64,000 nt of DNA from positions 786-64,785 of the forward strand of contig JBAZUE010000001.1 of NCBI GenBank assembly GCA_041661605.1, read 5' to 3'. The stretch is from Candidatus Omnitrophota bacterium (GTDB taxonomy: Bacteria; Omnitrophota; Gorgyraeia; Gygaellales; Profunditerraquicolaceae). The notes below the pieces were generated by a model. The model was not told the origin of the DNA. It did not search any database and saw only the letters and a program-made list of their open reading frames with translations. Position numbers and translations under genes: made by a program. This document shows, one piece after another, positions 6,001 to 28,154 of this stretch (positions within the stretch are counted from its first letter, which is position 1; each line of letters opens with the position of its first letter).

Positions 6001-8540
6001 CAGGCGGCAGGGTTGAGATTACATTTGATGCCGACTATGTGCTTACTGGAGTCACCAGTGTTACAGGTTATGACGCCAGCGTAACAGTAGCCGGTAATAT
6101 CCTGGTAATTACTTTAAACACGCAATTACAGGTAGGAGAAGCCTGTTCTTTCGTAATTCCGAATATTAAAAACCCGGGTGCGCAGAGTACAGACGCTTAT
6201 TCCCTGGTAACCAAGGATTCTACGGGTACTTCTTTAGATGAAGGCACGATAGCCGGTAAAGTCATCCTTGCCGGAGCATTAAGCGGGCTTTCCACCTCGG
6301 CTACGTCGTATGAAGTAATGGGCACAAGCGAGACTGCGACATATACCTTTAATTTTACCTGCCAGCATACTATTCCTGTTAACGGATATGTCAGGATAGG
6401 TTTTGACGCGGATTATTTCCTGGATAACGCGGTTAACCAGAGCCCGCAATATTTAATATCTTCTAAGGGAGCGGATTATTTATTAATCAGGACTACCCAG
6501 GAGCGCAGCGGAAATTGCACTATACAGATAAGCGGCATAAGGAACCCGGGCTATGTACAGACAACCGCTAATTTTACAGTAGCCACGCAGCTACCCGCGC
6601 AGCAAAATATTGATACCGGCACCATTGCAGGGATTACCACTACTGCAGGTTCCTTGAGTAACCTTTCAGTAACGACAACTAACTCTAAAATCGCCGAGGC
6701 AGCTACGTATACCTTTGGGTTTACGGCGGACCACGCCATCGCGGTAGGAGGCAAAGTAGCTATAACTTTAGATTCCGATTATAACCTGGCATCGGTCCAG
6801 CCTACCGATGTATCCGGTAATACCGGCTCGACTGTGGCAGTTAACGGAGCAGACCTGGTTATTACTTTGGGTGAACAGGTCTTTGCTTCAGATAATGTAT
6901 CGCTCTCGGTAGCCAATATAATCAACCCGTCATACGTCAAGACCGCGGCTAATTTTAGTATTAAGGCCAAGAATACCGAGGATGGATTAATAGATGAAGG
7001 CAGCGTAGCCGGATTAACTTTTGAGCCGGGAGTTTTAGGCGCCGTAAGTGTCAGCTCGAACAGCCTGCAGGTAAATGCCCAGTCGATTTATACCTTTACC
7101 TTTACACCCGCGCATCCAATTCCTGCCGGCGGATATATTAAAATAGACCTGGATAATGATTTTAATATAGGTTCGGCATATCTATACCTGGTATCAGGTT
7201 ATTCTTTCACTAAGAACCTGACTGATGTTTATTTTACTTTACAACCAAACAGCGCAAAACCGGCAGGGACACCTATAGTAATATCTATAGCCGGCATTGC
7301 CAACCCTCCATATAGCCAGACCACGGATAATTTCGCAATTAACACGCAGGCGGTTAATCAGAATGGTATCGATTCCGGAACAGCTCCCGGAGTTGAGATT
7401 ACCGCAGGAGAGCTTTCAGGGGTAAGTGTTAGCGCCGCCGGAGGAAACTATGTAGCCGGAGCACAGACAAGTTATACTATTGCATTTACCACTATAAATG
7501 CCGTGGGTGTCGGAGGCAAGATTAAGATTACATTTGATTCTGATTACGGGCTCCTGTTAGACGGCACAGTGTTAGGTAATTCCGGCTCAACAGCCGCAGT
7601 AAACGGAAATATTATTACTGTAACTTTAGGAACGGCAATTCCGGCTAATCAAGCTGTCAGCTTAACCATGGGCACTTTCAGGAACCCCGGATACGCGCAG
7701 ACAACGGAAAACTACACCATAAGAACGTATGATTCCTTAAATAACGCCCTGGATTCAGGTACGGCGCCGGGGCGTGATATTACTATAGGCGCTTTGACCG
7801 GTTTAGCCGTAAATGCCAGTTCATTTACCGTGCTTAATGCGGATACGAAATTGACATTTGACCTTAATGCCACACATACGATCCCCCAGGATGGTTATAT
7901 CAAGATTACTTTGGATAGCGATTATATAGTTGTAGCTCCTTATATTAAGAGTTCTACCGGGGCCAACCTGACCTTACTTACAGAAGCAGGCAGCCAGGAT
8001 GGGTATCTTTTGTTTAAGCTAAATTCGGCATTTACAGGGGCAATGAGCGTTGAGGTAGGAGGGCTTACCAACCCTGCTTATGAGCAGACTACAGCGAATT
8101 TTGTGGTTACTACTATGTATACCGGAGAACAGAGTATTGACACAGGTACTATTACGGGTTTGGCTATTACTGCCGGCTCCCTGAATATAAGTTCTGTGAG
8201 CAGCCCGGATGTTTATTCCGGCTCAACTACAGAATATACCATTGATTTCGTAGCAGCACACAATATCCCGATCACAAGTAAGATTGAAATTGTTTTTGAT
8301 AGTGATTATGATTTAAGTACTTCCACATTGAGCAGCCCGGAAGGGAGTTTAACCGTCTCAGGAAATACCTTGAGTATATCTTTAAATGCCGGAGTTACGA
8401 CCTCTGCTAATGTAAGTCTGAAGATAGCCGGTATTATAAATCCGAAATATTCGCAGACAACGGGTATTTTCAGGGTGACTATAAAGGATTCAGGAAACAA
8501 TGTTGTAGATAAGGGTGAGCATGCAGGAATTGCCATATTG
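3..8540 (+). repeat. Coding tandem array of at least 23 divergent ~125-aa beta-rich modules, organised as ~500-aa four-module super-repeats
   Basis: Each module carries TxYTFxFTxxHxIPxxGxIxIxFDxDY, then (I/L)xN(I/V)xNPxYxQTTxxFxIxT, then IDxGT. I counted 23 NP anchors. The A-type anchors fall at nt 156, 1656, 3150, 4668, 6171 and 7683. Confidence 0.85.
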
Positions 8541-13644: not shown

Positions 13645-13705
13645 ATCCGGGGACGTTTCTATTTTACTTATTCAAATGTTTGAAAAAATGGAAACGTCCC
13701 CGGAT
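13645..13705 (+). terminator. Hairpin terminator candidate downstream of the giant ORF
   Basis: A perfect 15-bp inverted repeat, ATCCGGGGACGTTTC (13645-13659) and GAAACGTCCCCGGAT (13691-13705), starts 2 nt after the stop codon. The 31-nt loop can pair further internally. The T-rich TTCTAATTTT follows. Confidence 0.55.
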
Positions 13706-13730: not shown

Positions 13731-13869
13731 TGTGTTTGCCCTTGCTCGCTAAAGCTCGCAAGGACTGCGTTGGATAAAATCTATAAGGTGCTTGCTTCAG
13801 GTGCTTGCCCTTGATTTCGCTTCGCTCAATCAAGGACTGCGTTGGATAAAATCTATAAGGTGCTTGCTT
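13731..13869. repeat. Intergenic 72-bp tandem repeat (two full units plus a partial third start), each unit containing a hairpin
   Basis: A perfect 39-bp direct repeat, CAAGGACTGCGTTGGATAAAATCTATAAGGTGCTTGCTT, occurs at 13759-13797 and 13831-13869. Hairpins are CCTTGC/GCAAGG (13740-13745 / 13758-13763) and CCTTGATT/AATCAAGG (13809-13816 / 13828-13835). Confidence 0.9.
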
Positions 13870-13906
13870 TAGCAATTTGAATGTGGTAAAATTTTAATGG
13901 AATATT

Positions 13907-14692
13907 ATGCGGATAAAACATAAAAAATGGGTTAATTGGCTGTTATTAAGCAGTTTTTTACTTGTCCCCCTGCAAGCTCGAGCCGCCGGGATTAACTGGA
14001 ATAACGAAGAAAAAAGTAAACATTTTGTCATTTATTACCAGGATGCATCTACTGATTATATCAACCGGCTGGTCACGGAAGCCGAACATTGCTACAAGAA
14101 CATTACCGAATACCTGGGGTTTGTAAGATTTGATTTTTGGGTTTGGGATAACCGTTGTAAAATATACCTCTATCCCGACGAGGAAACTTATTTAGGCACA
14201 ACGGGTGTTATTGGCTGGTCAAGGGGCAGCGTTCAGGTTACCAAAAAGGAAATTAGCACATACATGTGGCAGGAGATGCTCTTTGATACGATACTGCCGC
14301 ATGAGATGGGGCATATAATATTCAGGGAGTTTGTCGGTTTTAACAGATCCCTGCCCCTTTGGCTTGATGAGGGGGTTGCCTGTATGCAGGAATATGAAAG
14401 CAAAGAGCGCCTGGCAACCGCTAAATGCCTGGTAAATTTGAAGTTATACACGCATTTGGAAGACCTGTCTAAAATCAGGGATTCCAGCGTAATTATACCA
14501 TTTATTTTTTATAATGAGGCGGCAAGCTTGGTGGATTTTCTTTTAAGAAGATTCGGCAGGAATAAATTTGTGGATTTTTGCCGTTCTATGCGGGATGAAC
14601 CGGATTGGGAGCAATCGCTTAAAGGTGTATATAAAATAAGGAACCTGGAAGAGTTGGAAAAGCTTTGGGTTGAGGATTTGACTGAAAATTAA
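13907..14692 (+). CDS. Secreted zinc metallopeptidase, peptidase-MA-like (HExxH)
   Basis: The N-terminal signal peptide is LLLSSFLLVPLQARAAG. The HEMGH motif is followed by PLWLDEGVA, the pattern of the Peptidase_MA_2-type family. Confidence 0.6.
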   Translation: MRIKHKKWVNWLLLSSFLLVPLQARAAGINWNNEEKSKHFVIYYQDASTDYINRLVTEAEHCYKNITEYLGFVRFDFWVWDNRCKIYLYPDEETYLGTTGVIGWSRGSVQVTKKEISTYMWQEMLFDTILPHEMGHIIFREFVGFNRSLPLWLDEGVACMQEYESKERLATAKCLVNLKLYTHLEDLSKIRDSSVIIPFIFYNEAASLVDFLLRRFGRNKFVDFCRSMRDEPDWEQSLKGVYKIRNLEELEKLWVEDLTEN

Positions 14693-14710: not shown

Positions 14711-15622
14711 ATGAAGAATGAAGTAAAAGCGCGTGAATTCAATATCCTGGTTGTTGAGGACGATGATAATACGTTTAAGGCCATAAAAAACGGCCTGATA
14801 AATCCGGAGTATAAGCTGCACCGGGTGACTACGGGCCAGGAAGCAATCAGCTTGGCCAAAGAAGGTTATTTTGTCGGTATTATCACAGAGATGCAGATCG
14901 GCGACATGAACGGCATTGAATTAGTGCGCCGGCTTAAGAAAATAGACCAGCGGATTAATATAATCGGCCTGACTGTTTATGCCTTTGTCAATTTAGCCGT
15001 AGAGGCAATGAAGGAAGGCGTTTACGCTTATCTGATGAAACCCATAAATAACGATGAGCTTAATTTAGTCTTAAGGCGGGCGATAGAAAATACATTCCTT
15101 CTGATCCAGGCAGGGCAAAGGAAATATTATCAGGATATCGCCACAATGGACGGCTTGACCGGTGTTTATAATCACCGCCATTTTCATGAAATGCTGGATT
15201 GGAATATTTCGCACTTGAACCGCTCCCCCCAGGCGTTCTCTTTGTTTATTACCGATATCGATAATTTTAAGAAATACAATGATACTTACGGCCACGTGGA
15301 AGGGGATAAAATACTGCACAATTTCGCCCAGCTTTTAGTCAGCTCTACCAGGGATAATGATATGGTTTTTAGATATGGCGGAGAGGAGTTCGCGGTGATC
15401 CTCTCGCAGACAGACCAATTCGGCGCGCAGAAAGTAGGGGAGAGGTTATTGACAATAGTAAGGAGCAAGATGCCTATAACCATGAGCGTGGGTTTAGCCA
15501 GCTTTCCCGTGAATGCCCAGGTTAAAAGTGAGTTGGTCGTGCGCGCCGATAAAGCGCTTTACCGGGCAAAGAGCACAGGAAAAGACAGATTGTGCACTTA
15601 TGACGAGAAGATAGACAAATGA
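14711..15622 (+). CDS. Receiver-domain / GGDEF diguanylate cyclase (GGEEF active site, RxxD I-site)
   Basis: The N-terminal CheY-like fold has the VVEDDD acidic pocket, T in IIGLTVYA and K in LMKPI. The C-terminal GGDEF domain carries RDNDMVFRYGGEEF (GGEEF at nt 15377-15391). The stop overlaps the next gene's start (ATGA). Confidence 0.85.
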   Translation: MKNEVKAREFNILVVEDDDNTFKAIKNGLINPEYKLHRVTTGQEAISLAKEGYFVGIITEMQIGDMNGIELVRRLKKIDQRINIIGLTVYAFVNLAVEAMKEGVYAYLMKPINNDELNLVLRRAIENTFLLIQAGQRKYYQDIATMDGLTGVYNHRHFHEMLDWNISHLNRSPQAFSLFITDIDNFKKYNDTYGHVEGDKILHNFAQLLVSSTRDNDMVFRYGGEEFAVILSQTDQFGAQKVGERLLTIVRSKMPITMSVGLASFPVNAQVKSELVVRADKALYRAKSTGKDRLCTYDEKIDK

Positions 15623-15831
15623 AAAATATAACTATTATCCTGATAATGTTAATCAGTACTTTAGGCCCGTCAGGGGTTATTGCTGCAGTAGGTTTTTCCG
15701 GGGTTAAAGCCATCGGCAGGAATCCTTCGGCAGCTCCCAAGATATTGATTTCGATGATATTGGCTTTTGTTTTCGCCGAGGCCATAGCTATAATCGGGCT
15801 TCTGGTTGTATATAACTTGTTCGGGCAGTAA
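15619..15831 (+). CDS. atpE: F-type ATPase subunit c
   Basis: This 70-aa two-helix hairpin has the GRNPSAAP loop and a carboxylate in helix 2 (FAEAIAIIGLLVV). Confidence 0.8.
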   Translation: MKNITIILIMLISTLGPSGVIAAVGFSGVKAIGRNPSAAPKILISMILAFVFAEAIAIIGLLVVYNLFGQ

Positions 15832-15849
15832 TTTAACCTAGGAGTAAAG

Positions 15850-16611
15850 ATGCTGGTATGGCAGATCATTCTTATTCAAATAGCTACTTTTGCCTTGATT
15901 GTTTTATTTTTGCGTTGGCTTCTTTACAGCCATATCAGCCGGGCGCTGGAGAGGCTGCAAAAACTTAACCAGCAAAACCTGGAAAAAGAGAAGGTGCTTA
16001 AGGAGGAGTTTGAGCGGGCAAGAAAACAGGCGGAAATCGAGATCCAGCAGGGTAAGGTTGAGGCTGAGAATATAAAAGAACAGGCGAAGGAAGAAGGAGA
16101 AAAGACAAGAAGGAATTTACTTGAGTCTTCCAAAGAAGAGGCAAAGCGTATTGTCAATGAGGGGGTCAGGGACAGCCAGAGAAAGTATAATGACCTGCTT
16201 TTGGAGATGCAGGATAAGGCGGTATATCTGGCAGTAGATATCGTAAGGTATATTTTTACGGAGAGGATCCGCCGGTCTTTACATGAACAGGTTATCGATG
16301 AACTGATTGAGGATGTATCCGGATTGGATAAGGAAAAGATAAGGGCTCAGGGAGATAAGGCGGAGATTGTCTGCGCTTATCCGTTGGGTTCAGACCAGAA
16401 ACAGCGCCTGCAGCAGGCATTATCTAATAAGCTGGAACGTAATATTATACTGGAGGAGACCCCTGATCCGGAGATTGTAGGTGGCTTGATTATACGCTTA
16501 AGCGGGTTCGTGGTTATTGACGGCAGTATCAAGAATAAATTTAAAAGAATATTGCCGATAATGAAAGATAAGGCCAGGGCGGGCATTGTTGAGCAGGCGG
16601 AGAAGAAATAA
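15850..16611 (+). CDS. atpF: F-type ATPase subunit b fused to a delta (OSCP) C-terminal domain
   Basis: An N-terminal TM helix is followed by a long charged coiled coil (b-like). The C-terminus, AEIVCAYPLGSDQKQRLQQALSNKLERNIILEETPDPEIVGGLIIRLSGFVVIDGSIKNKFKRI, matches the delta C-terminal pattern. No separate delta gene is present. Confidence 0.7.
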   Translation: MLVWQIILIQIATFALIVLFLRWLLYSHISRALERLQKLNQQNLEKEKVLKEEFERARKQAEIEIQQGKVEAENIKEQAKEEGEKTRRNLLESSKEEAKRIVNEGVRDSQRKYNDLLLEMQDKAVYLAVDIVRYIFTERIRRSLHEQVIDELIEDVSGLDKEKIRAQGDKAEIVCAYPLGSDQKQRLQQALSNKLERNIILEETPDPEIVGGLIIRLSGFVVIDGSIKNKFKRILPIMKDKARAGIVEQAEKK

Positions 16612-18078
16612 ATGCAGGAGATAAATTTAAAACCATTAGAAATAAAGGACGTAGGCACGGTTAGAGAAATCAAGGGCGGGGTAATTAAAATAGGAGGGCT
16701 TGCTTCCTGCGTAAACGGCCAGTTAATCGAACTTGCCCCCGATTTAATGGGGATGGTAATAGGTTTTACCAAGAGGGATGTCTTGGTCCTGGTCCTTGGC
16801 GATGAAAATAAGGTGCATATCGGCGATACTGTTTATGGTGAAGAAGGGGTTTTTGAAATCCCCGTGGGTAGTAATTTCCTGGGCCGGGTAGTAAATACTT
16901 TTGGCCAGCCATTAGACGGTAAAGGAAAGATCGAAGGGGTTGATTCCTATCCGATTTTTAGAAACGCTCCCGGCGTCCTGGACAGGACTCCTATCGTGGA
17001 GTCATTCCTTACCGGTACCAAGATAATCGATACCTGTATCCCCTTGGGTAAAGGCCAAAGGGAGCTTATCCTTGGGGACAGGGTTACCGGAAAGACCACC
17101 CTGGTTATTGACGCAATTATAAATCAAAAAGATAAAGATGTGATCTGTATATATTGCTGGATAGGAGGAAGCCAGTCGGCGTTTTTGAAGATTATGGAAC
17201 AGCTGAGATTAAGCGGCGCAATGGATTGGACTATTGTTGTCGCAGCCTCGGCGTCTGCTTCTCCGGCAGAGCAATATCTTGTTCCCTATGCCGCTTGCGC
17301 CTTAGGCGAATATTTCATGGATCATGGCCGGGATGTTTTCTGCGCTTTTGATAACCTGAGCAGGCATGCCTGGATTTACCGTGAAATCTCCCTGCTTTTA
17401 GAGAGAAGCCCGGGAAGAGAGGCTTATCCCGGGGATATATTTTATATCCATTCCCAGTTAATGGAAAGGGCAGGCAAGCTAAACGAAGAAAAGGGCTCAG
17501 GCTCAATGACATTTTTGCCTATAGTAGAAACTCAGGAAGGGGATATTACCGGTCTTGTCCAGTCAAACCTTGTTTCAATAACCGACGGGCAAATTTATAT
17601 GAGTGCTTCTCTTTTTAATGAAGGTTTCCGGCCGGCTATTGATTTAGGGCTTTCTGTTTCGCGAATCGGAAGCAAGGTTCAGTGTGAAGCGATAAAAAAA
17701 GTCAGCCGGTCATTAAAGAGAGAGTTTGCCCAGTATAAGGAGCTGGCCGCCCTTACAACAATCAGGACAAAACTTTCCGCTGATATAGAGCTGCGTTTAA
17801 AAAGAGGCCAGGCATTAAAAGATTTCCTTATCCAGGATAAAACAAAGCCTCTTTGCGTAGAGGAGATGATCGTGCTTTTCTATGCTTTCAATAAAGAGCT
17901 GCCTGAGGTTTTGGAAGATGCGCAGAGAGCAAATTTTAAGCAGCATATATACGATTATCTGCTCAAGAACCATCCGGAATTGATCGAGGAGCTTACGATC
18001 CAGAAATTCCTGACCGGAGGGGTAGAAAGAGGCCTGGATAAGGCATTTGAGGAGTTTTTTGCAGGTTCCGGCAGTTAA
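16612..18078 (+). CDS. atpA: F1 ATPase alpha subunit (divergent)
   Basis: It carries Walker A GDRVTGKT, plus PGREAYPGDIFYIHSQLMERA, ITDGQIYM and RPAIDLGLSVSRIG. The start codon follows immediately after the upstream stop. Confidence 0.85.
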   Translation: MQEINLKPLEIKDVGTVREIKGGVIKIGGLASCVNGQLIELAPDLMGMVIGFTKRDVLVLVLGDENKVHIGDTVYGEEGVFEIPVGSNFLGRVVNTFGQPLDGKGKIEGVDSYPIFRNAPGVLDRTPIVESFLTGTKIIDTCIPLGKGQRELILGDRVTGKTTLVIDAIINQKDKDVICIYCWIGGSQSAFLKIMEQLRLSGAMDWTIVVAASASASPAEQYLVPYAACALGEYFMDHGRDVFCAFDNLSRHAWIYREISLLLERSPGREAYPGDIFYIHSQLMERAGKLNEEKGSGSMTFLPIVETQEGDITGLVQSNLVSITDGQIYMSASLFNEGFRPAIDLGLSVSRIGSKVQCEAIKKVSRSLKREFAQYKELAALTTIRTKLSADIELRLKRGQALKDFLIQDKTKPLCVEEMIVLFYAFNKELPEVLEDAQRANFKQHIYDYLLKNHPELIEELTIQKFLTGGVERGLDKAFEEFFAGSGS

Positions 18079-18093
18079 ATCTTAAGGTGTAAA

Positions 18094-18990
18094 ATGATAC
18101 CGCTGACGATATTACGCAAAGATTTAGCGTTTAATAAAGTAATGGAAAATATAATCGAAGTTTTAAAGGGGGTAGCCGCCACCGAATATTTCCATCTCCA
18201 GACAAAAAGAAAAAGTTTTGATGAGTTTGAGGGCCGTCTCAGGGATTTGTTCGCTCAGGTAGATATCCATGATTTCCAGCATCCTTTCTTAGGGGCTGAG
18301 GCCTCTTCAAATAATATCGTGATGATAACCTCGGATACCGGTTTCCTGGGTGAGCTTAATATGTCGGTAATAAATTATGGCTTGAGCCAGCATAGAGAGG
18401 CTGATCTGCTTACGGTAGTCGGCAAGGAAGGGGTCAGGTATATAGGAGAGCATGGCATCAAGTACGATAGTTTCGCCGGTATTGATGACGATATATCTTA
18501 TGGGCCGGTGGTAAAATTAAGAGACCACATAATAAAGCAGTTTTTTGATAAGAAATTAAGCAATACAGTGATTATCTATCCGCATTTTATTTCTTTTTCC
18601 GTACAGAAGATTGAACAGTTCCAGCTGTTTCCCTGCCGGTTTTTATTCCCGCAGGCGCAGAAATCCGCCGGGCCGGGGGAGAGCCAGACCGGTTTTTGGC
18701 AGGTCGATCCGGAAGAGAAAATAATCCTGGACTCACCCCTAAAGACAATTGTGGAATACCTGGTTAAAGTCTGGATCGGCCAGTTGATCCACCTCATCTT
18801 TTGGGAGAGTAAGCTTTCTGAATGGGCAGCGCGGGTAATGCATTTAGAAAGAAGTACCACCGAAATCAGGGACCAGCAGAAAAAGATGAGATTGCAATAT
18901 TTCCGGACTTTGCACGAAAGAAGCGATAAGAGTACCAGGGAGATTTTTGTCAGCAGGATGGCTTTGATAAAAAGCGGGGCCATATTATAA
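18094..18990 (+). CDS. atpG: F1 ATPase gamma subunit (divergent)
   Basis: It lies between alpha and beta. It has an N-terminal helix, the central [12 protein letters not shown] motif, and a C-terminal helix ([34 protein letters not shown]) that follows the gamma pattern. Confidence 0.7.
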
Positions 18991-19015
18991 GCTTGAAAGC
19001 AAGAGGGGGATTTTA

Positions 19016-20425
19016 ATGCAGGAAGGCAGGGTTGTTTCAGTCCAGGGGCCGATTGTAGATATAGAGTTTCCTCCTGAATCGTCTTTTCCGGCTGTATATG
19101 ACATTATTGAGACAGAGACATTTGACGGCTCAAGGATAGTGCTTGAGGTGGTCGAATATTTAAGCAAGGCCGAAAACGATAAGACCAATACTATGAGATG
19201 CATTTCCTTGACTCCTAATTTTGGTCTGCGCAGGAATGCCAAGGCTTTTGCTACCGGTGCAACCATAAGCGTCCCCGTCGGAGATGTAACCTGTTCCCGG
19301 ATATTGAATGTGTTAGGCGAACCGGTGGATAAAAAAGGGGCGATTAAGGTTGGTCCGGAATTTATCAGGCCTACCCATAAAAAGCATCAAATAGCCACGG
19401 TTGATACCGGTGACGGCAAGGAGAAAAAATTTGAAGTAATGCAGACAGGCATTAAAATGTTTGATTTGTTGTTTCCTTTAATCAAGGGCTCAAGGAACGG
19501 TATCTTAGGAGGGGCGGCTTGCGGCAAGAGCGTAATTATCCTTGAGCTAATGCATAATATTATTAAGATGCAGAAAGGTTATTGCGTTTTTACCGGCGCA
19601 GGGGAGCGGACCAGGGAAGGTAATGAGTTATATTATGAACTGGAGAAACAGGGGATCCTGAACAGGTCGGCCCTGGTGTTTGGCCAGATGAATGAATCCC
19701 CCGGGGCAAGGTTTGAAGTAGTGCATACCGGCCTGACCCTGGCTGAGAATTTTGCCGAGAAAGGCGAAGACGTCTTGTTGTTTGTGGATAATGTTTACAG
19801 ATTTGCCCAGGCAGGAAGCGAGTTGTCTACTCTTTTAGGCAGGATTCCTTCTGAAACAGGCTATCAGCCTACTCTGCCGACAGAGATGGCTGAGTTCCAG
19901 GAGAGGATCCGCTCAAGCGGCCAGGCTTCAATTACCGCGATGGAAGCGGTCTATGTGCCTTCTGACGATTTGACTGACCCGGCAGTTGTCTGTATATTCA
20001 GCTATTTGGATTCTATAGTCATTCTCTCCCGTAGGTATGTGCAACTGGGCCTTTTTCCTGCGATTGACGCTTTAACTTCTTCCTGTTCTTTTCTTGACCC
20101 GGTGATCATTGGGAAAAGGCATTTTAAGACTGCCCAGGATGTCTTAAGGACCCTTAATAGGTATGAAGAGCTCAGGCGTATCGTCGCTATCGTAGGCGTC
20201 GAGGAACTTTCCGGAGGAGACAGAATTATATTTGAAAGGGCGCAAAAACTGCAGAATTTTCTTACCCAGCCGTTTTTTACTGCTGAAGCTTATACAGGTA
20301 AAAAAGGGGAGTATGTATCTTTAGAGGCAACTTTAGAGGGCTGCGACAGGATAGTCGCAGGCGAGGTAGATAAAATAGCCGCGGAGAGATTTTATATGAT
20401 AGGGTCCTTACCTATGGAGTTATAA
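19016..20425 (+). CDS. atpD: F1 ATPase beta subunit (divergent P-loop GGAACGKS)
   Basis: Motifs present are [48 protein letters not shown] and [11 protein letters not shown]. The DELSEED-equivalent reads EELSGGD. Confidence 0.85.
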
Positions 20426-20456
20426 GGCAAGATTATAAACAGGGAGATTAAAAGAA

Positions 20457-22181
20457 ATGATAATTAAAATAGGCCAGATGTTGATTAACAAAAAATTAAT
20501 TACCTCTGAACAACTAGAGTCGGCCCTGCAGGAACAGGGAAAAACGGGCGAGCTTTTGGGGTTAATCCTGGTTAAAAAAGGTTTTTTAACCGAGGAGGAT
20601 TTCTTAAAAGTACTTTCCGAGCAATTTAATGTTCCTTTCATAAAATTAAAAGAAACCACTATTGATCCTTCAGCGATAAAAAAGGTTCCTGCCAAATTCG
20701 CCTGGTATTATAAAGTTATGCCGGTTAAGTTCGTGGATAATAAATTAGTTATCGCATCTAGCGACCCCCTGCGATCGCTGGATGATTTAAGAATATTTTT
20801 AGGTTATGACTTAAAGCCCGCTTTGGCTTCGGAAGCTGAAATAATGGAAACGATTAAAGAGCATTACGGAGTAGGCGCTGAGACTGTGGAAGGCATTATT
20901 GCCAAGGCTCCAAAAGAAACCCGGGAGCAGGAAGCGCCAAAAGAAACAGGCAAGATTGAGGATATAGAAAAATTAGCCGAAGATGCCTCGGTAGTCAAGC
21001 TGGTAAATCAGATAATCCTGGAGGCTTACCAGAAGAGGGCTACCGACATCCATATTGAACCCTTCCGGGGGAAAATGAATATAAGGTACCGCATTGACGG
21101 GGTGCTTTATAACGCCAATGTCCCGGCGGATATCGAACGTTTCTTCCTGGCGATTATTTCACGCATAAAGATAATGTCCAGGTTAAATATTGTGGAGCGC
21201 CGTCTTCCTCAGGACGGACGTACTGTAATAAAGATAGGGCAGGAGGAATTGGACCTTAGAATTTCCATTATCCCGACTCGTTATGGCGAGGGCATGGTTA
21301 TAAGGATCCTTCCCATGAGCATGCTTTTTAGCTTAGAGAGATTGGGCCTGGTCCCTGAGGATTTAGAAATACTGGCAAGGTTAATCAAGAAACCTCACGG
21401 CATAATCCTGGTTACCGGGCCGACCGGCAGCGGCAAGAGCACTACTTTGTATGGATGCTTGAATGATATTAAAAGCAGCAAGAATAAGATTATTACCATT
21501 GAGGACCCTATAGAATATGAACTGGAAGGTATAATCCAGATCCAGGTTTTACCGGAGATAGGCTTTACCTTTGCCCAGGGATTAAGAAGCATATTGAGGC
21601 ATGACCCGGATATCATGATGGTGGGGGAGATCAGGGACTTTGAGACCGCGGAGCTGGCAATCAGGAGCGCCTTAACCGGGCATTTGGTTTTTTCCACCTT
21701 GCACACAAATGACGCTGCCGGGGCCGTGGCCAGGCTGCTTAATATCGGCATTGAACCATACTTGGTAGCTTCTTCCGTAGAGGCATTTATTGCCCAAAGG
21801 CTGGTGCGTTTAATCTGCCCGGAATGTAAAGAAATAGATACAGCAGTGCCGGATAATATCAGGACAATAATAAGCCAGGATGTTGCCAAGAGCAACATAG
21901 GGTTAAAACACTTAAGGGCCGCGGAGATTAAATTTTATAAGGGCAGGGGTTGTAAGGATTGCAACTTTACCGGTTATAAAGGAAGGACAGCAATCCATGA
22001 GATATTGGTAGTGGACAAAGCGATAAGAGAGCTGATGTTAAAGAAGGCATCAACCGATGAATTGAGGGATAAGGCGGTCAGCCAGGGGATGAAGACATTG
22101 CGTTTATGCGGATGGAAAAAGGTTATCGACGGACTGACTACTCCCGAAGAGATACTAAGAGTAACCCAGGCGGAGGAGTAG
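20457..22181 (+). CDS. gspE: Type II secretion / type IV pilus assembly ATPase (GspE/PilB/MshE family)
   Basis: It has an N-terminal T2SSE_N-type domain, Walker A GPTGSGKST, His box TGHLVFSTLHTND and a tetracysteine motif (CPEC...CKDC). Confidence 0.9.
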   Translation: MIIKIGQMLINKKLITSEQLESALQEQGKTGELLGLILVKKGFLTEEDFLKVLSEQFNVPFIKLKETTIDPSAIKKVPAKFAWYYKVMPVKFVDNKLVIASSDPLRSLDDLRIFLGYDLKPALASEAEIMETIKEHYGVGAETVEGIIAKAPKETREQEAPKETGKIEDIEKLAEDASVVKLVNQIILEAYQKRATDIHIEPFRGKMNIRYRIDGVLYNANVPADIERFFLAIISRIKIMSRLNIVERRLPQDGRTVIKIGQEELDLRISIIPTRYGEGMVIRILPMSMLFSLERLGLVPEDLEILARLIKKPHGIILVTGPTGSGKSTTLYGCLNDIKSSKNKIITIEDPIEYELEGIIQIQVLPEIGFTFAQGLRSILRHDPDIMMVGEIRDFETAELAIRSALTGHLVFSTLHTNDAAGAVARLLNIGIEPYLVASSVEAFIAQRLVRLICPECKEIDTAVPDNIRTIISQDVAKSNIGLKHLRAAEIKFYKGRGCKDCNFTGYKGRTAIHEILVVDKAIRELMLKKASTDELRDKAVSQGMKTLRLCGWKKVIDGLTTPEEILRVTQAEE

Positions 22182-22188
22182 GAAGGGA

Positions 22189-22428
22189 ATGTTCAAAGTA
22201 TCGGTGCTGGATATAAAGACAGCTTCAACTATATTCCAGGAATTGGCCTCTTCAGTTGTACTGCCGGGAGATGAAGGGGAACTTTCTATACTGGATTTTC
22301 ATCAGCCGGTTATCTCCTGTCTTAAAGACGGCATAATCAGAATAGACAGCAAGCCTCCTATGGTTATTAAGAACGGTATCGCCAGTATGCAGGATAATGA
22401 ATTAATAGTGTTGGTGGAGAAGAAATAA
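22189..22428 (+). CDS. atpC: F1 ATPase epsilon subunit, N-terminal beta-sandwich domain only (79 aa)
   Basis: FKVSVLDIKTASTIFQELASSVVLPGDEGELSILDFHQPVISCLKDGIIRI...IKNGIASMQDNELIVLVE aligns by eye with the epsilon NTD (GELGIL.GH.P pattern). No C-terminal helical hairpin is present. Confidence 0.75.
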   Translation: MFKVSVLDIKTASTIFQELASSVVLPGDEGELSILDFHQPVISCLKDGIIRIDSKPPMVIKNGIASMQDNELIVLVEKK

Positions 22429-22429
22429 T

Positions 22430-23683
22430 ATGCCGATATTCATTTATAAAGCAAAGAACGGCCCGCAAGAGGTTATTGAAGGGACTGTTGAGGCAGTGAC
22501 TAAGGAAGCAGCTGTTAGTAAGATAGAGCAGATGGGCTATGTCCCTATCCGGATTAATCTTAAAGAAGAGTCTCGCACCGCTGCTGCCGGAAAACCTCCG
22601 GAAAATAAAAATTCCGCTGTCGGGGCCGGGAATTTAGGGTTGTTTAACAGGGTTGGTTCATATGATTTAAATGTATTTACTGAACAGCTGGCTACTTTAG
22701 TTAAGTCCAAAGTGCCGCTTTTTGAAGCCATAAATATCCTTTCTTCGCAGACGGAAAATCCCAAGCTTAAGCTGATAATAACTTCTATATCCGGTGAATT
22801 AAAAGACGGTAAGACTCTGTCGGAGGCCTTAAGCAAATATCCCCAGGTCTTTCCTTTGCTATACGTTAATATGGTCCGCTCAGGAGAATCAGGCGGGGTT
22901 TTAGACGAGACCTTAACCAGGCTGGCTAAATTCCGTGAAGAACAGGAAGAGGTAAGAGCGAATATAAGCTCAGCCCTGGCCTATCCGATCTTTATAACAA
23001 TAGTAGGCTTGATTACGGTTATCATTCTGCTTACTTTTGGTATCCCGCGTTTGGTTTCTATGTTCAGCGAAACCAAACAGGCCCTGCCGCTGCCTACCAG
23101 GATTTTGATTTCAATAAGCAGCGGGATCAGGAACTACTGGTATTTGGGCGTAATGTTTATAGCCATGCTTATTTTTATGTTAAAACAAAAGCAGGCAAAT
23201 AGGAAGAAAAAGGTCATCTTTGATAAAATCATATTAAGGTTACCCATTTTGGGTAAATTTAACAAAAAAGCTATGTTGGCAGAATTTACCCGGACCTTTG
23301 CCCTGCTTTTGGCTAATGGCGTACCGGTACTTGAGGCGCTTCAGATAACTGTACCGACAATAAATAATGAAATATTCAAATCGGAGCTGGAAAAGGTGCA
23401 TAGTGATATTATCGTAGGCACCCCGCTTTCGCAGAGCATGAAAAAGTCCAGCTGGTTCCCGCCATTCCTGACCAATATGATCGCGGTAGGAGAAAGAGGG
23501 GGTAATCTGCAGGAGGTATTATTGGAGGTGGCAGTTTTTTACGAACGCGAAGTAAGAAAGATAAATAAAATAATGACTTCCTTGCTTGAACCGGCGATAA
23601 TCTTAGTCATGGGTTTAATTGTAGGTTTTATTGTCATGGCGATGCTTCTGCCTATTTTTGAGATCAATATGGCGGTAAGATAA
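22430..23683 (+). CDS. gspF: Type II secretion / type IV pilus platform protein (GspF/PilC family)
   Basis: This 417-aa protein has a duplicated T2SSF-type domain and three TM segments. It begins 1 nt after the epsilon stop. Confidence 0.9.
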   Translation: MPIFIYKAKNGPQEVIEGTVEAVTKEAAVSKIEQMGYVPIRINLKEESRTAAAGKPPENKNSAVGAGNLGLFNRVGSYDLNVFTEQLATLVKSKVPLFEAINILSSQTENPKLKLIITSISGELKDGKTLSEALSKYPQVFPLLYVNMVRSGESGGVLDETLTRLAKFREEQEEVRANISSALAYPIFITIVGLITVIILLTFGIPRLVSMFSETKQALPLPTRILISISSGIRNYWYLGVMFIAMLIFMLKQKQANRKKKVIFDKIILRLPILGKFNKKAMLAEFTRTFALLLANGVPVLEALQITVPTINNEIFKSELEKVHSDIIVGTPLSQSMKKSSWFPPFLTNMIAVGERGGNLQEVLLEVAVFYEREVRKINKIMTSLLEPAIILVMGLIVGFIVMAMLLPIFEINMAVR

Positions 23684-23699
23684 TTAAGGGGGAATTTAG

Positions 23700-24116
23700 A
23701 TGAAGGCAAAAAGAGCATTTACGCTCATAGAATTGATGCTGGTGGTCATAATTATCGGAGTTTTGGGGGCAATGGTGTTGCCAAGGCTGGCTGGCCGTTC
23801 CGAGCAGGCAAAATCAGCGGTGGCCAAGACAGATATCAACGCCAATATAGCAACTGCCCTGGATCTTTATGAACTGGATAATGGCCGCTATCCTACTACG
23901 GAACAGGGGCTGGCCGCCCTCGGGACAAAACCGGGGGATCTTTCCGAAGGTTCAAATTGGAACGGACCTTATCTTAAAAAAGAGCCCAAAGACCCATGGG
24001 GCAAGGACTATCAATATAAATATCCCGGAACGCATGAAGGCGTAGACTATGATTTGTATTCTTTGGGAGCAGACGGTATAGAGAGCGATGATGACATCGG
24101 AAACTGGAAAAAATAA
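23700..24116 (+). CDS. gspG: Major pseudopilin GspG
   Basis: It has the prepilin leader with FTLIELMLVV, and the GspG-type body AKTDI...ALDLYELDNGRYPTTEQGL...GPYLKK.PKDPWGKDYQYKYPG...YDLYSLGADG. Confidence 0.9.
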   Translation: MKAKRAFTLIELMLVVIIIGVLGAMVLPRLAGRSEQAKSAVAKTDINANIATALDLYELDNGRYPTTEQGLAALGTKPGDLSEGSNWNGPYLKKEPKDPWGKDYQYKYPGTHEGVDYDLYSLGADGIESDDDIGNWKK

Positions 24117-24486
24117 AGGTTTTACATTAATTGAGATAATGATCAGCATAGCCATCCTGTCGTTAGGCCTGATCCTGATTCTTCAGGGGCTCACTCAGTG
24201 TCTTAACATCCTGCGTATTTCCCAGAACAACCTGGAAACAAGTTTATTGGCCGAGGAAAAGATGGCGGAGATGGAGATAGCCGTTAAGCAGGATAAGGAG
24301 ATGTTTTCTAAAGATACAAGCGGAGAATCGCAATCCGGCAATATAGAATTCAACTGGCATGTACGCTTGAACCCTGATATGCAATATGAAGATTTGTATG
24401 AGGTCCTGACTACGGTTAACTGGACAGAAGGAAGAAGAAAGGGCTCCAGTATTTTTAACAGCTATCTAATGATTCCGCATGGTTAG
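24088..24486 (+). CDS. Minor pseudopilin (GspH/GspI-like)
   Basis: It has the prepilin-type N-terminus KGFTLIEIMISIAILSLG, is 132 aa long, and sits directly after gspG. Confidence 0.7.
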   Translation: MMTSETGKNKGFTLIEIMISIAILSLGLILILQGLTQCLNILRISQNNLETSLLAEEKMAEMEIAVKQDKEMFSKDTSGESQSGNIEFNWHVRLNPDMQYEDLYEVLTTVNWTEGRRKGSSIFNSYLMIPHG

Positions 24487-25093
24487 AAGAAATAAGGAAA
24501 ATTTCATTGCGGGCTTTACCCTGATTGAACTTATTATCAGCGGAGCGCTTATTTTCCTGGTTTCCATAACCGTTTATTCTGTCTTTGCCAGCGGGATCAG
24601 CGTTTGGAAGAGGGCTAATCAAGCCAGGAGCGCCGGTTACGGATTAAGGCTGCTTGCGGATAAGTTGAGCGTTGAATTGAGGAACGCTTTCAGGTTTTCC
24701 AGTATTCCGTTTGAGGGCAAGCAAGATTCTATTGCCTTTGCCGGGCTTATCGATAACCAGGTGGGCAGGATCAGTTATTTTCTTAATGAAGAAGATACCT
24801 TTTGCCGAAGGTTACAGAGCTATCCGGATGTTTTTAAGAAGGGGGAGTCCGGTAAATATGAATTATTGCTTCCCGGGGTTTCGAAGTTAAAGTTTAGCTA
24901 CTGTTATCTTGATAATGCAACCGGAGATTATAAGTGGAAGGATGAATGGGTAAAAGAAGAGCAGGACACTATCCCCCGGGCTGTAAAAATAGAGTTAACT
25001 TATAAAAGAAAACCTGAAGAAGAATCAAAATTTATCAAAACGATATTTATCCCTATCGGGACAGGCGAACAAAAGATAGAGCTTGTACAATAA
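24479..25093 (+). CDS. Minor pseudopilin (GspJ-like)
   Basis: It has the prepilin-type N-terminus AGFTLIELIISGALIFL and is 204 aa long. Its position matches gspJ. Confidence 0.65.
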   Translation: MVRRNKENFIAGFTLIELIISGALIFLVSITVYSVFASGISVWKRANQARSAGYGLRLLADKLSVELRNAFRFSSIPFEGKQDSIAFAGLIDNQVGRISYFLNEEDTFCRRLQSYPDVFKKGESGKYELLLPGVSKLKFSYCYLDNATGDYKWKDEWVKEEQDTIPRAVKIELTYKRKPEEESKFIKTIFIPIGTGEQKIELVQ

Positions 25094-25102
25094 AGGGCTT
25101 TT

Positions 25103-26122
25103 ATGACAAAAGAGGGCAATTGCCCGCGGGCGAGCATACTGATTATTACCCTCTGGGTGTTAGGTTTCCTGACCATCCTTGTGGTCAACCTGGGTTTTAT
25201 GGTCAGAACGCAATTACAATTTGCCGACCATCTGCAGGACAGGCTGAAGATGTATTATCTGGCCAGGGCAGGCATAGAAAGGGCGGTTGTTGAATTATAT
25301 AAAGATGAGAATAAGAGCTATGATTCTTTCAACGAGCCTTGGGCCAACAAGGAAGAGTTTTTTAAAGATTTTGCCTTTGGAGGAGGTTTTATCACACTTA
25401 AGTATCAAACCGGAAGCCTCGCCGCTCAAGAAAATATAACATTATACGGGGCAATGGATGAAAGCAGTAAAATAGATATAAATAGCCTGCCTCTGGATAT
25501 ATTAACAATTTTGCTGGAGCGTATCGGGCAAATAGAAACAGAAGAAGCAATAGATATAGCCAGGGCAATCGTGGATTGGAGGGATATAGATATTGCCGTT
25601 TTACCCGGCGGAGCGGAAGATGAATATTACCAGGGTTTGTCCTCTCCTTATAAGTGTAAAAATGGCAAATTTCAAATACTGGAGGAGTTATTGCTGGTTA
25701 AAGGTATGACCCCTGAGATATTCTCCAGGATAAAGGGGATAATCACTGTTTATGGCACAGAAAAGGTAAATATCAATACCGCAAGTTTTGATTGTCTATA
25801 CGCTTTGGGTTTAAGCAGCAGCCTGTGCGAGCGGATAATTAAATTCCGCCAGGGCAGCGATGAGATATGCGGCACCGGGGATGATTTCATTTTTAAATCC
25901 CCCAGTGATCTGATGAGCGTAGGTTCCTTATTTACCGATGAAGCCACGCAGATAAATACTTTGATTTCCAGGAATATGCTTACGGTAAGATCGGATATTT
26001 TCAGGATTAATTCCCTGGGGATTCTTAGGAATGAAAAAGGCGACCGCTCAAGAGAAATTATTTGTGTATTAAAGCGCCAGGAAGAAAAGGCGCCGAAAAT
26101 ATTATATTGGCATGAAAATTAA
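25103..26122 (+). CDS. gspK: Minor pseudopilin GspK-like
   Basis: It has the N-terminal hydrophobic segment RASILIITLWVLGFLTILV without the conserved Glu. It is 339 aa, with helix-hairpin-helix-like INTAS...L segments typical of GspK. Confidence 0.7.
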   Translation: MTKEGNCPRASILIITLWVLGFLTILVVNLGFMVRTQLQFADHLQDRLKMYYLARAGIERAVVELYKDENKSYDSFNEPWANKEEFFKDFAFGGGFITLKYQTGSLAAQENITLYGAMDESSKIDINSLPLDILTILLERIGQIETEEAIDIARAIVDWRDIDIAVLPGGAEDEYYQGLSSPYKCKNGKFQILEELLLVKGMTPEIFSRIKGIITVYGTEKVNINTASFDCLYALGLSSSLCERIIKFRQGSDEICGTGDDFIFKSPSDLMSVGSLFTDEATQINTLISRNMLTVRSDIFRINSLGILRNEKGDRSREIICVLKRQEEKAPKILYWHEN

Positions 26123-27614
26123 CTTAACGAAATTATTCCAAAAGCAGGAACAGGTTACAACCGTCTTCCAGATAGATAATAACTGGTTGAGGTTAATCCA
26201 GGTAACGACGCTTAAGCGGGAGAAAAAGGTTTCCATGATAAAGGCCATGGACATTGTTTCTTTATCCGATGAGGAGATAACCCAAAAGGTATCTGAGCTG
26301 GTTGCTGAATTAAAGATAAATTCGCGCTATCTTATCTTATCTATACCGCGCCAACTTACAACCACCAGGAACCTTGATTTGCCTTCCGCAAATCCGCTTG
26401 AGATAAAAGACATGATTGAGCTGCAGATCGGCAAGCAAACACCCTATGCCAGCGATGAAGTGATTAAGGATTACCAGATCCTGGGCAGCGGAGCCGACGG
26501 ATACAGCAAGGTGCTTTTGGTTATCGTGCACCGGGATATTGTGGGAAGGTATTTAAAAATATTAGAGTCAGCCGGGCTTAAGGCGCAAAGGGTAAGTTTT
26601 GGTTCCGAAGGACTGTTAAATTGGAGGAACCTGGCTTACCGGGAAAAACTGGCTGCTGAAAAGGTGCACATATTGATTGAAGTTGATTATGATGCCAGCG
26701 ATTTTGAGGTTGTGCTCAATGACAAGATGGTTTTTGGCAGGAGCATCTCTTTAGGTTTTTCCCAGCTTCCCGGCCAACTCGAGCAGTGGCAGAAGAAGTT
26801 TGTCGAAGAGGTAAACCATTCAATTTATGCTTACCAGAATGAAATAATGGGTAAGGAGATCGATAAGATTATAATCAGCCAGCCCAGGTTAGTCGGCGAC
26901 AGCCTGGATCAGGCCGTATTGGAAAAGGAGTTCGGCCTGCCTGTAGAGATCATAGACCAATTTAAGGATATCCCTTTTACCGAAGAAGGGGTGAGTTCTT
27001 ACAACAGCCTGATCAGGACGGATCTATCTTTTGCCGGGCTGCTCGGTTTGGGATTACCGGCTTTAGAACATAAGATTGACCTTGTCCCCCAGGAGCATCA
27101 GATTGGCAAAGCAGTTAAAGAAAAAGGCAAAGACCTTTATATCATGGGCATTCTATTGGTGTTTATCCTGGTTGCTTTTTCCGGAGTATTTTTAGGGAGA
27201 ATGTATAATAAAGAACGGTATTTAGGCCAGCTAAAGCAGCGCCTCGGAGAAATCCAGAATAAAACCAAAGAGCTAAATAGCATGATCCGGGGGATAGAGA
27301 CAATCAAAGACCGGGTTTATACAAGGGGTATGTCGCTTAACCTTCTATATGAGGTGCACCGCTCAGTCCTGCCCGAAATGTATTTAAACTCCGTAAGCTT
27401 TGACGGAAAACAAGAGCTGACTTTGCGGGGCGAGTCCAATGAAATGTCGGAGGTTTTTAACTTTGTTAATAAATTGGAAGAATCAGCGTATTTTCAGAAC
27501 GTTAAGTCAAAATACGCGACCAAGCGCAAGGAGGGGGATAAGGAGATGACGGATTTTGAGATTTCCTGTCCTTTGGCGGATAAATATAAAATTACCGATA
27601 AATACAAATTATAA
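26112..27614 (+). CDS. PilM-like actin-fold assembly protein fused to a PilN-like TM / periplasmic region (GspL-equivalent)
   Basis: The N-terminal ~330 aa follow the PilM pattern. Then come a TM helix (LYIMGILLVFILVAFSGVFLG), a coiled coil and a small C-terminal domain, as in PilN/GspL. Confidence 0.65.
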   Translation: MKINLTKLFQKQEQVTTVFQIDNNWLRLIQVTTLKREKKVSMIKAMDIVSLSDEEITQKVSELVAELKINSRYLILSIPRQLTTTRNLDLPSANPLEIKDMIELQIGKQTPYASDEVIKDYQILGSGADGYSKVLLVIVHRDIVGRYLKILESAGLKAQRVSFGSEGLLNWRNLAYREKLAAEKVHILIEVDYDASDFEVVLNDKMVFGRSISLGFSQLPGQLEQWQKKFVEEVNHSIYAYQNEIMGKEIDKIIISQPRLVGDSLDQAVLEKEFGLPVEIIDQFKDIPFTEEGVSSYNSLIRTDLSFAGLLGLGLPALEHKIDLVPQEHQIGKAVKEKGKDLYIMGILLVFILVAFSGVFLGRMYNKERYLGQLKQRLGEIQNKTKELNSMIRGIETIKDRVYTRGMSLNLLYEVHRSVLPEMYLNSVSFDGKQELTLRGESNEMSEVFNFVNKLEESAYFQNVKSKYATKRKEGDKEMTDFEISCPLADKYKITDKYKL

Positions 27615-27620
27615 ATAAAA

Positions 27621-28154
27621 ATGGAATTTCTATCAAGGTTATCTAAAAAAGAAAGACGCCTGTTTTATATCGCGGTGACGGTGGTGGCCGTTGTTTTTCT
27701 TGACAGGGTGGTCTTCAGGCCCGTCCTGAATAAACTGGAAAGTTTTAACGGGAAGATCTCCCTGGAGGAAAAAAAGCTGGAGAAGTCATTGCTTATACTG
27801 GGGCAGGAATCGGCCATAACGCAAGAATACAAGAAATTTGCTCAAAGTATAAAACAGGAACAGTCTGATGAAGAAACGATAGCCAGCCTGCTTAGCAGTA
27901 TAGAAAAAATGGCCAAGAGTGTTTCTGTTTTTATCCTGGATATGAAGCCGGCCCCGGTAGAAAAAGCGGAGTTTTATAAAAAATACGCCGTAAAGATCGA
28001 AGCCGAGGCAAAAATCAGCAACTTGACAGATTTTATTTATCAACTGGAAAATTCTCCTAATTTACTCAGGGTGGCGGATTTCCGCATTACTCCCCAGAAA
28101 AAAGAAACTGTTTTAAAAATTAATATGACAGTTACCGAGGTTTTGATTAATTAA
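27621..28154 (+). CDS. PilO/GspM-like bitopic assembly protein
   Basis: This 177-aa protein has an N-terminal TM (LFYIAVTVVAVVFL), a coiled coil and a ferredoxin-like C-terminal region. It is the last gene of the cluster. Confidence 0.55.
   Translation: MEFLSRLSKKERRLFYIAVTVVAVVFLDRVVFRPVLNKLESFNGKISLEEKKLEKSLLILGQESAITQEYKKFAQSIKQEQSDEETIASLLSSIEKMAKSVSVFILDMKPAPVEKAEFYKKYAVKIEAEAKISNLTDFIYQLENSPNLLRVADFRITPQKKETVLKINMTVTEVLIN

Follow-up and report, generated by a model that had tools for sequence, protein, structure and literature searches.

The closest described relatives of the locus presented here belong to the same phylum of Bacteria, the Omnitrophota. In the part of their paper drawn on here, Seymour et al. 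2023 (Nat Microbiol, PMC10066038) report 'symbiotic', non-respiratory F-type ATPase genes which lie by the genes of type 4a pili in every class of the phylum; a separate 'respiratory' F-ATPase clade is found in respiring Omnitrophota. Both gene sets are within 10 kb of each other on 57 of 66 contigs, the loci are near giant open reading frames (ORFs), and the alpha subunit was grouped with types 2/3 of Mycoplasma. Genes of type II secretion systems (T2SS) or pili also adjoin giant genes according to West-Roberts et al. 2023 and a 2026 preprint. The preprint gives alpha and beta subunits in 125 of 176 complete genomes and a canonical gamma in only 30, which suggests that this complex is often the sole F-type enzyme of the cell. 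A full-text search of the literature gave no further paper on the association of ATPase and pilus, and two later papers on the V. archaeovorus culture do not mention the ATPase. We have analysed one such locus in a stretch of 64,000 nucleotides, which we call the window: positions 786 to 64,785 (forward strand) of contig JBAZUE010000001.1, in assembly GCA_041661605.1 of a Candidatus Omnitrophota bacterium. In this locus the genes of an F-type ATPase are interleaved with those of a machine similar to a T2SS or a type IV pilus (T4P).

The association of both systems is already known in outline, as it was published in passing in 2023. An earlier note on this DNA, made from the sequence alone, stated that T2SS and T4P operons contain no atp genes; this is out of date, as the arrangement has been reported across the Omnitrophota (PMC10066038). 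Our locus resembles those of Seymour et al.: it is found in an Omnitrophota genome, and the F-type alpha and beta genes are less than 10 kb away from genes of the T4aP/T2SS type (beta and GspE are separated by 31 nt). The interleaving, the c, b-delta and epsilon subunits, the missing subunit a, the embedded peptidase and the components related to cyclic di-GMP (c-di-GMP) are not described in the portion of their text drawn on here. What is added in this work is the inventory of subunits, the absence of a, the mobility of epsilon, the peptidase embedded in the cluster and the link with c-di-GMP.

Layout of the cluster and its relatives

On the + strand, positions 13907-28154 contain 16 genes with a largest gap of 31 nt, as we have found by recomputing the ORF coordinates. 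A peptidase gene and a cyclase gene are followed by c, b-delta, alpha, gamma, beta, GspE, epsilon and GspF, in this order, and then by the pseudopilin genes, PilM-PilN and PilO. These genes, the elements which precede them and the giant gene upstream are all on the same strand. Pfam and NCBIfam agree with every gene assignment in the cluster. The gene calls of the earlier note were reproduced together with its five junction distances: the REC-GGDEF cyclase gene overlaps c by 4 nt, b-delta and alpha have no nucleotide in between, and the distances are 31 nt from beta to gspE, 7 nt from gspE to epsilon and 1 nt from epsilon to gspF. Starting with the junction of GGDEF and c, the whole series of intergenic distances is -4, 18, 0, 15, 25, 31, 7, 1, 16, -29, -8, 9, -11 and 6 nt. 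Most genes have a sequence similar to a Shine-Dalgarno site on their 5' side.

A terminator-like hairpin (13645..13705) is found right after the stop codon of the giant gene. Its arms have 21 nt and are 95% complementary; the folding energy is -35.6 kcal/mol (z = -8.3) and a U-rich stretch lies 3' of it. Just 5' of the peptidase gene there is a promoter-like element (13864..13892), with TTGCTT, a 17-nt spacer and an extended -10 sequence, TGg-TAAAAT. This is the sole conserved block in an intergenic region which is otherwise divergent when the window is compared with seven relatives. Between hairpin and promoter-like element we have also found a tandem direct repeat (13759-13872), with two copies of a 42-nt core which are 98% identical and 72 nt apart; it is not kept in the seven relatives aligned. 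On the + strand of 13907-28154 no terminator-like site is placed between genes, all such sites being intragenic. Separate promoters and terminators for the atp and gsp genes, which the earlier note had considered, find no place here: there are no internal terminators and no room for promoters. Scans of the window for tRNA and Rfam families gave no matches.

Since the gaps do not exceed 31 nt, there is no intergenic terminator, a hairpin lies upstream and the -35/extended -10 block is conserved, a single transcription unit is predicted. Its layout would be that of one polycistronic unit, from the peptidase to PilO, behind one conserved promoter-like element. One of the two readings proposed in the earlier note, an operon fusion for co-expression, is upheld as far as such a predicted co-transcription goes.

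The window proteins correspond to NCBI MFA6129354-57, which come from a Ca. Omnitrophota metagenome-assembled genome (MAG), on a contig of 922,655 bp. The same cluster is present on about 40 independent Omnitrophota contigs, numbered here with an L. A scan of one genome per GTDB species gave 37 loci, all of them in Omnitrophota or in evidently mislabelled bins. Those homologues of epsilon, beta and c which have a taxon name belong to Candidatus Omnitrophota (58 out of 58 for epsilon), and a few are labelled 'bacterium' only. In tblastn searches with the window proteins, the atp genes and GspE/GspF are contiguous wherever the flank suffices, and likewise in a genome of 1.99 Mb. Wherever a related locus extends far enough, beta is followed by GspE and then by GspF; in one case epsilon stands between beta and GspE. 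Contiguity persists down to identities of about 54% for beta, about 50% for GspE, 33-39% for epsilon and 26-30% for b-delta.

The interleaving described in the earlier note is present in relatives. In a neighbour-joining tree of beta the loci which share the gene order of the window form one clade; the position of L038 in this tree is an artefact, its alpha ORF having been taken. In deeper clades epsilon is found either 5' of c (L030, L036, L037, L039 and L040) or directly after beta (L035), while L033 again has the order GspE-epsilon-GspF. The peptidase gene of L042 lies between b-delta and c, and L001 has the genes of a PAS protein and of a histidine kinase inserted between gamma and beta. 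The epsilon interleaving is a clade-specific rearrangement, and epsilon has moved several times within the cluster. What is universal is that ATPase and secretion genes are contiguous and are accompanied by the peptidase and by the C-terminal anchor module of the upstream giant protein. The order has been shuffled and the membership kept; this is the pattern expected of genes selected for joint expression. The other reading of the earlier note, recruitment of an F1-like module or of its epsilon subunit into the secretion machine, is weakened as far as it relied on the adjacency of epsilon with GspE and GspF, given the positions of epsilon in the six loci of the deeper clades just named.

Some loci have peculiarities of their own. 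Two tandem copies of GspE are found between beta and epsilon in L017 (718-4240). L031, from an Omnitrophota MAG, has an orphan epsilon-like gene (PF02823; 2435-2707) right after an SMC gene, with no further atp or gsp genes within its 10-kb contig. The complete locus is also found in bins labelled Planctomycetia or Binatia (L006, L010, L016, L017 and others), as well as on an 87-kb contig (L023, JAIWAR010000001.1) of a MAG labelled as a Methanosarcinales archaeon. These labels from outside the phylum are probably due to mis-binning; the archaeal label of L023 could reflect an epibiont physically associated with its host. L032 (CP070797.1, titled 'chromosome') has 100-N gaps at 12019-12118 and 18682-18781, which cut alpha and join it to an unrelated ORF of 2271 aa; this locus is unusable 3' of alpha.

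The F-type ATPase and the systems it resembles

The alpha subunit (16612..18078) and the catalytic beta subunit (19016..20425) are recognised by their equivalog models: alpha has 545 bits with TIGR00962 (cut-off 484) and beta 537 bits with TIGR01039 (cut-off 463). The P-loop GDRxTGKT and the Arg finger of alpha are invariant in 23 out of 23 family members. All 121 beta sequences compared share the P-loop GGAxxGKS, the catalytic motif GER.REGN and the Walker B Asp, with EELS[KRG]ED in place of DELSEED. To judge from these motifs, both subunits are catalytically intact. Compared with E. coli, alpha lacks some 12 aa at its N-terminus. It is orthologous to its counterparts in all the related loci which have this context, with identities of 52-98%.

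The c subunit (15619..15831, 70 aa) is of the F-type, with 32.8 bits for PF00137 (cut-off 24); the NCBIfam equivalogs are not reached. It is the best conserved protein of the cluster, with identities of 63-97%. Neither the Glu aligned with D61 of E. coli nor the RNP loop varies among 25 distinct sequences of the family.

The remaining subunits have changed much more. Gamma (18094..18990) is divergent: it has 102 bits for PF00231, only 75 bits for TIGR01146 (cut-off 194), 45 bits with the best PDB gamma and 21% identity to E. coli. The gamma family is large and diverse: with exhaustive HMMER, 50%-identity clusters gave 81 representatives at E <= 1e-30, and 229 when E <= 1e-10 was allowed. Epsilon (22189..22428) has 79 aa. 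It matches PF02823 with E = 1e-13, stays below the equivalog model (53 bits, cut-off 67) and is 30% identical to E. coli; it contains the beta-sandwich N-domain only, without C-terminal helices. Its AlphaFold2 model has a predicted local distance difference test score (pLDDT) of 91, and the 50 best PDB matches are all epsilon N-domains of F-ATPases, with TM scores of 0.8-0.88. The assignment of this protein as epsilon is thus confirmed both by profile and by predicted structure.

The stalk protein b-delta (15850..16611) is a fusion. It matches PF00430 (residues 7-133) and PF00213 (residues 168-234, profile positions 102-168). The b part (residues 7-155) has one transmembrane (TM) helix and a long helix. 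Joined to it is only the C-terminal domain of delta, residues 148-239, which align with delta 92-177 in the PDB alignment; the N-domain of delta is absent. Among NCBIfam models alt_F1F0 B matches best, without reaching its cut-off, and the identity to E. coli is 24-27%. The delta N-domain normally clamps the N-terminus of alpha. The attachment of the stator is predicted to be non-canonical, because the delta N-domain is missing and the N-terminal helix of alpha is shortened. In the related loci gamma, epsilon and b-delta are also fast-evolving, while c, alpha and beta are conserved. The view that all subunits are divergent holds for gamma, epsilon and b-delta, which are strongly so; alpha and beta are only moderately divergent, with identities to E. 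coli of 42% and 46%.

Subunit a is missing from the cluster, as the earlier note had said. With AtpB of E. coli as a query, phmmer --max gave noise only, both in the 64-kb window and in about 40 related loci, and the Pfam scans of the window ORFs gave no match for it. As a positive control, c, b, delta, alpha, gamma, beta and epsilon of E. coli were used in the same way, and each of these seven retrieves its own ORF. No recurrent extra ORF with several TM helices or other membrane character, and no adaptor-like protein, was found in the clusters of related loci. Several candidates for a hidden subunit a were rejected. The Peptidase_MA_2 ORF has a signal peptide and a HEMGH motif. An unannotated ORF of 264 aa in L042, with a signal peptide and a single TM helix at the C-terminus, is a match of the giant protein's anchor module. 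The giant ORF gives neither an AtpB nor a Pfam signal for a. A recurrent unannotated multi-TM gene was also discarded, as the enlarged gaps of the clusters hold small GIY-YIG-like ORFs. These have about 100 aa and are found in or by the atp genes (L019 3921-4244, L020 3782-4069, with further cases at L036 6391-6684 and L026 16202-16450); they look like selfish insertions.

The chief puzzle of this locus is that c keeps an invariant ion-binding residue and no stator channel can be detected. In the part of the KEGG orthology (KO) tables of Seymour et al. 2023 (PMC10066038) drawn on here, 'genome 221' has K02111 and K02112, for alpha and beta, among the matches listed. Those matches include no KO for a, b, c, delta, epsilon or gamma; subunits I and K of the V/A type (K02123, K02124) are among them, and V1 A/B are not. 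A V-type I-like protein encoded as an orphan might supply the stator partner which is missing.

When the complex is compared with known families, the canonical F1Fo ATPase (atpBEFHAGDC) shares many features with it. The alpha and beta equivalogs are reached; gamma, the epsilon N-domain, the c carboxylate, b and the delta C-domain are all recognisable; and the order c, b, delta, alpha, gamma, beta is retained. It differs from the canonical enzyme by the lack of a in the locus, of the delta N-domain and of the epsilon C-domain, by the fusion of b with delta, by the interleaved secretion genes and by a predicted regulation through c-di-GMP and two-component proteins. Gamma and epsilon also miss their equivalog models, though they match the Pfam domain models. 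The N-ATPases (atpDCQRBEFAG) have in common with our locus a long b with a delta-like C-terminus and no separate delta. However their models are not reached (alpha 497 bits with a cut-off of 750, beta 478 with 752, b 66 with 225); AtpQ, AtpR and a are absent here, there are no extra small membrane ORFs and the gene order is different.

The Mycoplasma ATPases of types 2/3 (the M. mobile gliding motor; MSC_0618/0619) are similar in being derived from F1, in their association with genes for the surface or for interaction with a host, and in having no a. The models of MMOB1660/1670 and MSC_0619/0618 are missed (400 bits with a cut-off of 600, 381 with 850, 316 with 520 and 368 with 570). The Mycoplasma clusters of these types are said, in work of Beven and colleagues of 2012, to be without recognisable c, b, delta and epsilon; our locus has c, epsilon and a b which carries the C-terminal domain of delta. 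Among PDB entries, canonical beta chains score 388-464 bits, as compared with 311 for the beta of the M. mobile G1-ATPase (9io5_A), and the 60 best matches of alpha are all canonical bacterial F1 alpha. In type III secretion systems (T3SS) the FliI/FliH/FliJ complex also has F1-derived parts which serve secretion, and FliH is similar to b plus delta, a likeness which our fused stalk protein shares. However the T3SS ATPase is homohexameric and has no c-ring, and with the best FliI/SctN models our alpha and beta have 166-208 bits, with cut-offs of 380-620.

Ranked by NCBIfam scores, alpha and beta are closest to canonical models, then to N-ATPases, then to Mycoplasma types 2/3 (316-400 bits) and finally to FliI/SctN. 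A specific kinship with the Mycoplasma types 2/3, with N-ATPases or with FliI was rejected, as all cut-offs of the hidden Markov models (HMMs) are missed. These scores, and the fact that the locus has c, b-delta and epsilon, speak against a place of the complex among the Mycoplasma F1-like ATPases. The published grouping of alpha with types 2/3 is not supported by the HMM and PDB scores of our sequences; ours is a placement by comparison of scores and not by phylogenies.

Secretion genes, c-di-GMP proteins and neighbours

The assembly ATPase (20457..22181) is of the GspE/PilB type, with PF00437 and an N-terminal MshEN domain (PF05157). The MshEN motif model for c-di-GMP, NF053729, gives 65 bits (cut-off 38). 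Both 24-residue motifs, at residues 4-56, the Walker A motif and the CxxC pairs are legible in the sequence, so that MshEN is a predicted c-di-GMP-binding domain. GspE reaches the Pfam family T2SSE and stays below its equivalog (577 bits, cut-off 630). The platform protein GspF/PilC (22430..23683) behaves in the same way, with two PF00482 domains, the Pfam family T2SSF reached, and 375 bits for TIGR02120 (cut-off 424). The major pseudopilin GspG (23700..24116) is recognised by TIGR01710 (159 bits, cut-off 89) and by PF08334. It is followed by a minor pseudopilin with the N-methylation motif (24088..24486, PF07963), a GspJ-like one (24479..25093, PF11612) and a GspK-like one (25103..26122, PF21687 and HHH_3). 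A PilM-PilN fusion (26112..27614; PF11104, PF05137, TIGR01175), which is the architectural counterpart of GspL, and PilO/GspM (27621..28154; PF04350, PF10741) complete the cluster. The whole set resembles a T2SS or an MshE-type T4P: the GspG equivalog is reached, the domains of GspE, F, J and K and MshEN are present, and PilM-N and PilO stand for GspL and GspM. It differs from a T2SS in the low equivalog scores of GspE and GspF, in the lack of secretin, GspC and prepilin peptidase in the window, and in the atp genes inside the operon.

A second cluster of this kind occupies 55956-64000. It contains a GspE of 551 aa with MshEN, 44% identical to the first one, a GspF with 33% identity and pilin-like genes. 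The GspE-GspF-pilin genes (58837-64000) stand behind a PAS histidine kinase of 949 aa and run past the end of the window. They have no atp genes, and thus provide an internal control.

Further proteins are encoded at the 5' side of the ATPase genes. The REC-GGDEF protein (14711..15622) is a response-regulator diguanylate cyclase with a GGEEF active site and an RxxD I-site, and its gene is found at the same position in most loci with the gene order of the window (order A). On the 3' side of the cluster, after the gene of a chorismate-binding enzyme, lie the genes (29373-31211) of a PAS-HisKA-HATPase protein, whose C-terminus is weakly GGDEF-like, and of a stand-alone receiver protein. Signals from these proteins might reach the REC-GGDEF regulator.

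The first gene of the unit (13907..14692) codes for a secreted zinc metallopeptidase of the MA clan, with a signal peptide and a HEMGH motif. In relatives it adjoins the atp genes or sits within them, and it is a plausible candidate for the cargo of the secretion machine. Further upstream lies a giant surface protein (1..13643), rich in Thr and Ser, whose only Pfam match is DUF2808. The earlier note had reported such a protein, and it is indeed present; its size has been corrected, because the ORF is open at the start of the window and the protein therefore has more than 4518 aa. Its C-terminus forms an anchor module (roughly 13040-13643), which has one TM helix and a length of about 200 aa. 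Homologues of the C-terminal 600 aa are found directly upstream of the cluster in most related loci, and the module is a separate gene of 264 aa in L042 (4907-5701). The suggestion that giant protein and peptidase are partners of the machine gains support from this conserved synteny, as also from the peptidase gene of L042 within the atp genes.

Elsewhere in the window there is an IS200-like Y1 transposase gene (43809-44546) and a block of glycine-cleavage (T, H, P1, P2) and lipoate ligase/synthase genes (47896-53870), with ECF/cobalt transporter genes flanking it.

Proposed function of the linked machines

The reading which we tentatively favour, a serious possibility though somewhat short of probable, is that the ATPase is made together with the secretion machine, under the same signal, as an ATP-driven energiser, with the peptidase as cargo and the giant protein as surface partner. 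A phosphorylation signal would switch on the REC-GGDEF cyclase, and c-di-GMP would then activate GspE. The F-type complex, made together with the secretion or pilus apparatus, would run in the direction of ATP hydrolysis; this direction is to be expected because epsilon has no inhibitory C-terminal domain and these bacteria are mostly without a respiratory chain. In its simplest mode the energiser would pump ions and so energise the membrane, which needs an a-type partner encoded elsewhere. The apparatus would export the peptidase and act with the giant surface protein in attachment to other cells, or in attack on them. Several points weigh against this reading. Ion pumping is hypothetical, as the search of the window and its related loci gave no subunit a. 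The direction of hydrolysis is deduced from a short epsilon and from lifestyle, and a short epsilon is also found in ordinary ATP synthases (the NF009983 model has 88 positions). The requirement of T2SS for a proton-motive force comes from work with proteobacteria. In addition, the secretin GspD, GspC and the prepilin peptidase were not found by Pfam among the window ORFs of at least 100 aa; they may be encoded elsewhere.

An artefact of assembly or binning which has joined an atp and a gsp operon can practically be dismissed. The same junctions, and the same order, are found in dozens of independent contigs from NCBI, JGI, ENA and Logan assemblies, including contigs of 0.9-2.0 Mb, and we have found nothing that favours a chimera: only the wrong taxon labels on some related MAGs and the N-gaps in the alpha of L032. 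It is rather unlikely, yet deserves weight, that the complex is a housekeeping F1Fo ATP synthase, often the only one of the cell, with atpB elsewhere in the genome; it would use the ion gradient produced by Rnf to make ATP, or else balance that gradient, and its linkage to gsp would come from operon merging in small genomes, with no coupling beyond co-expression. Alpha and beta would agree with such a role, as they pass the atpA/atpD equivalogs and are closest to canonical bacterial F1, and so would the invariance of the catalytic residues, the c carboxylate and the RNP loop. In the majority of complete Omnitrophota genomes alpha and beta occur without a canonical gamma, so that this may be their sole F-type enzyme, and Rnf is encoded by many of these lineages. 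However a is missing from all of about 40 loci, while the a and c genes of bacteria are almost always adjacent. The linkage to GspE and GspF has survived phylum-deep divergence and several rearrangements. Sensor and regulator genes are embedded among the atp genes, such as REC-GGDEF overlapping c, or PAS and histidine kinase between gamma and beta in L001. Respiring Omnitrophota have a separate 'respiratory' F-ATPase clade, according to the part of PMC10066038 drawn on here.

More doubtful still, and in our opinion improbable, is a hybrid nanomachine: a truly a-less F-type rotor and stator would be a physical or dedicated component of the pseudopilus machine, and its ATP-driven rotation would be used mechanically, or the complex would dock on the platform, instead of moving ions across the membrane. 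A local ion cycle through a non-canonical stator might equally be harnessed in such a machine. There are precedents in the F1-like gliding motor of Mycoplasma and in the FliI/FliH/FliJ complex of T3SS. The absence of a at all loci searched, with the membrane parts c and b kept, would fit this proposal, as would the non-canonical attachment suggested by the missing or shortened delta N-domain and alpha N-terminal helix, the altered DELSEED loop, and the fast evolution of gamma, epsilon and b-delta alongside conserved c, alpha and beta. Nevertheless the invariant ion-binding Glu of c is hard to explain without ion translocation. The neighbours of epsilon vary among clades, so that adjacency gives no hint of a contact of epsilon with GspE or GspF, and no recurring protein with a plausible role as adaptor is found in the clusters. 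Moreover, the cytoplasmic face of GspF is already taken by GspE in known machines.

F-type ATPases are textbook energy converters, and their reuse for other purposes is rare, as in the Mycoplasma gliding motor and the T3SS ATPase complex. Here a nearly complete F-type ATPase has been kept in a secretion or pilus operon, beside a secreted protease and a giant adhesin-like protein, throughout a phylum whose members are ultra-small and probably predatory or parasitic. A hybrid of rotary ATPase and T2SS, if true, would have no characterised counterpart. If the two machines are coupled, they would represent a new way to power or control contact-dependent attack, and would show how bacteria without a respiratory chain energise the machines of their envelope.

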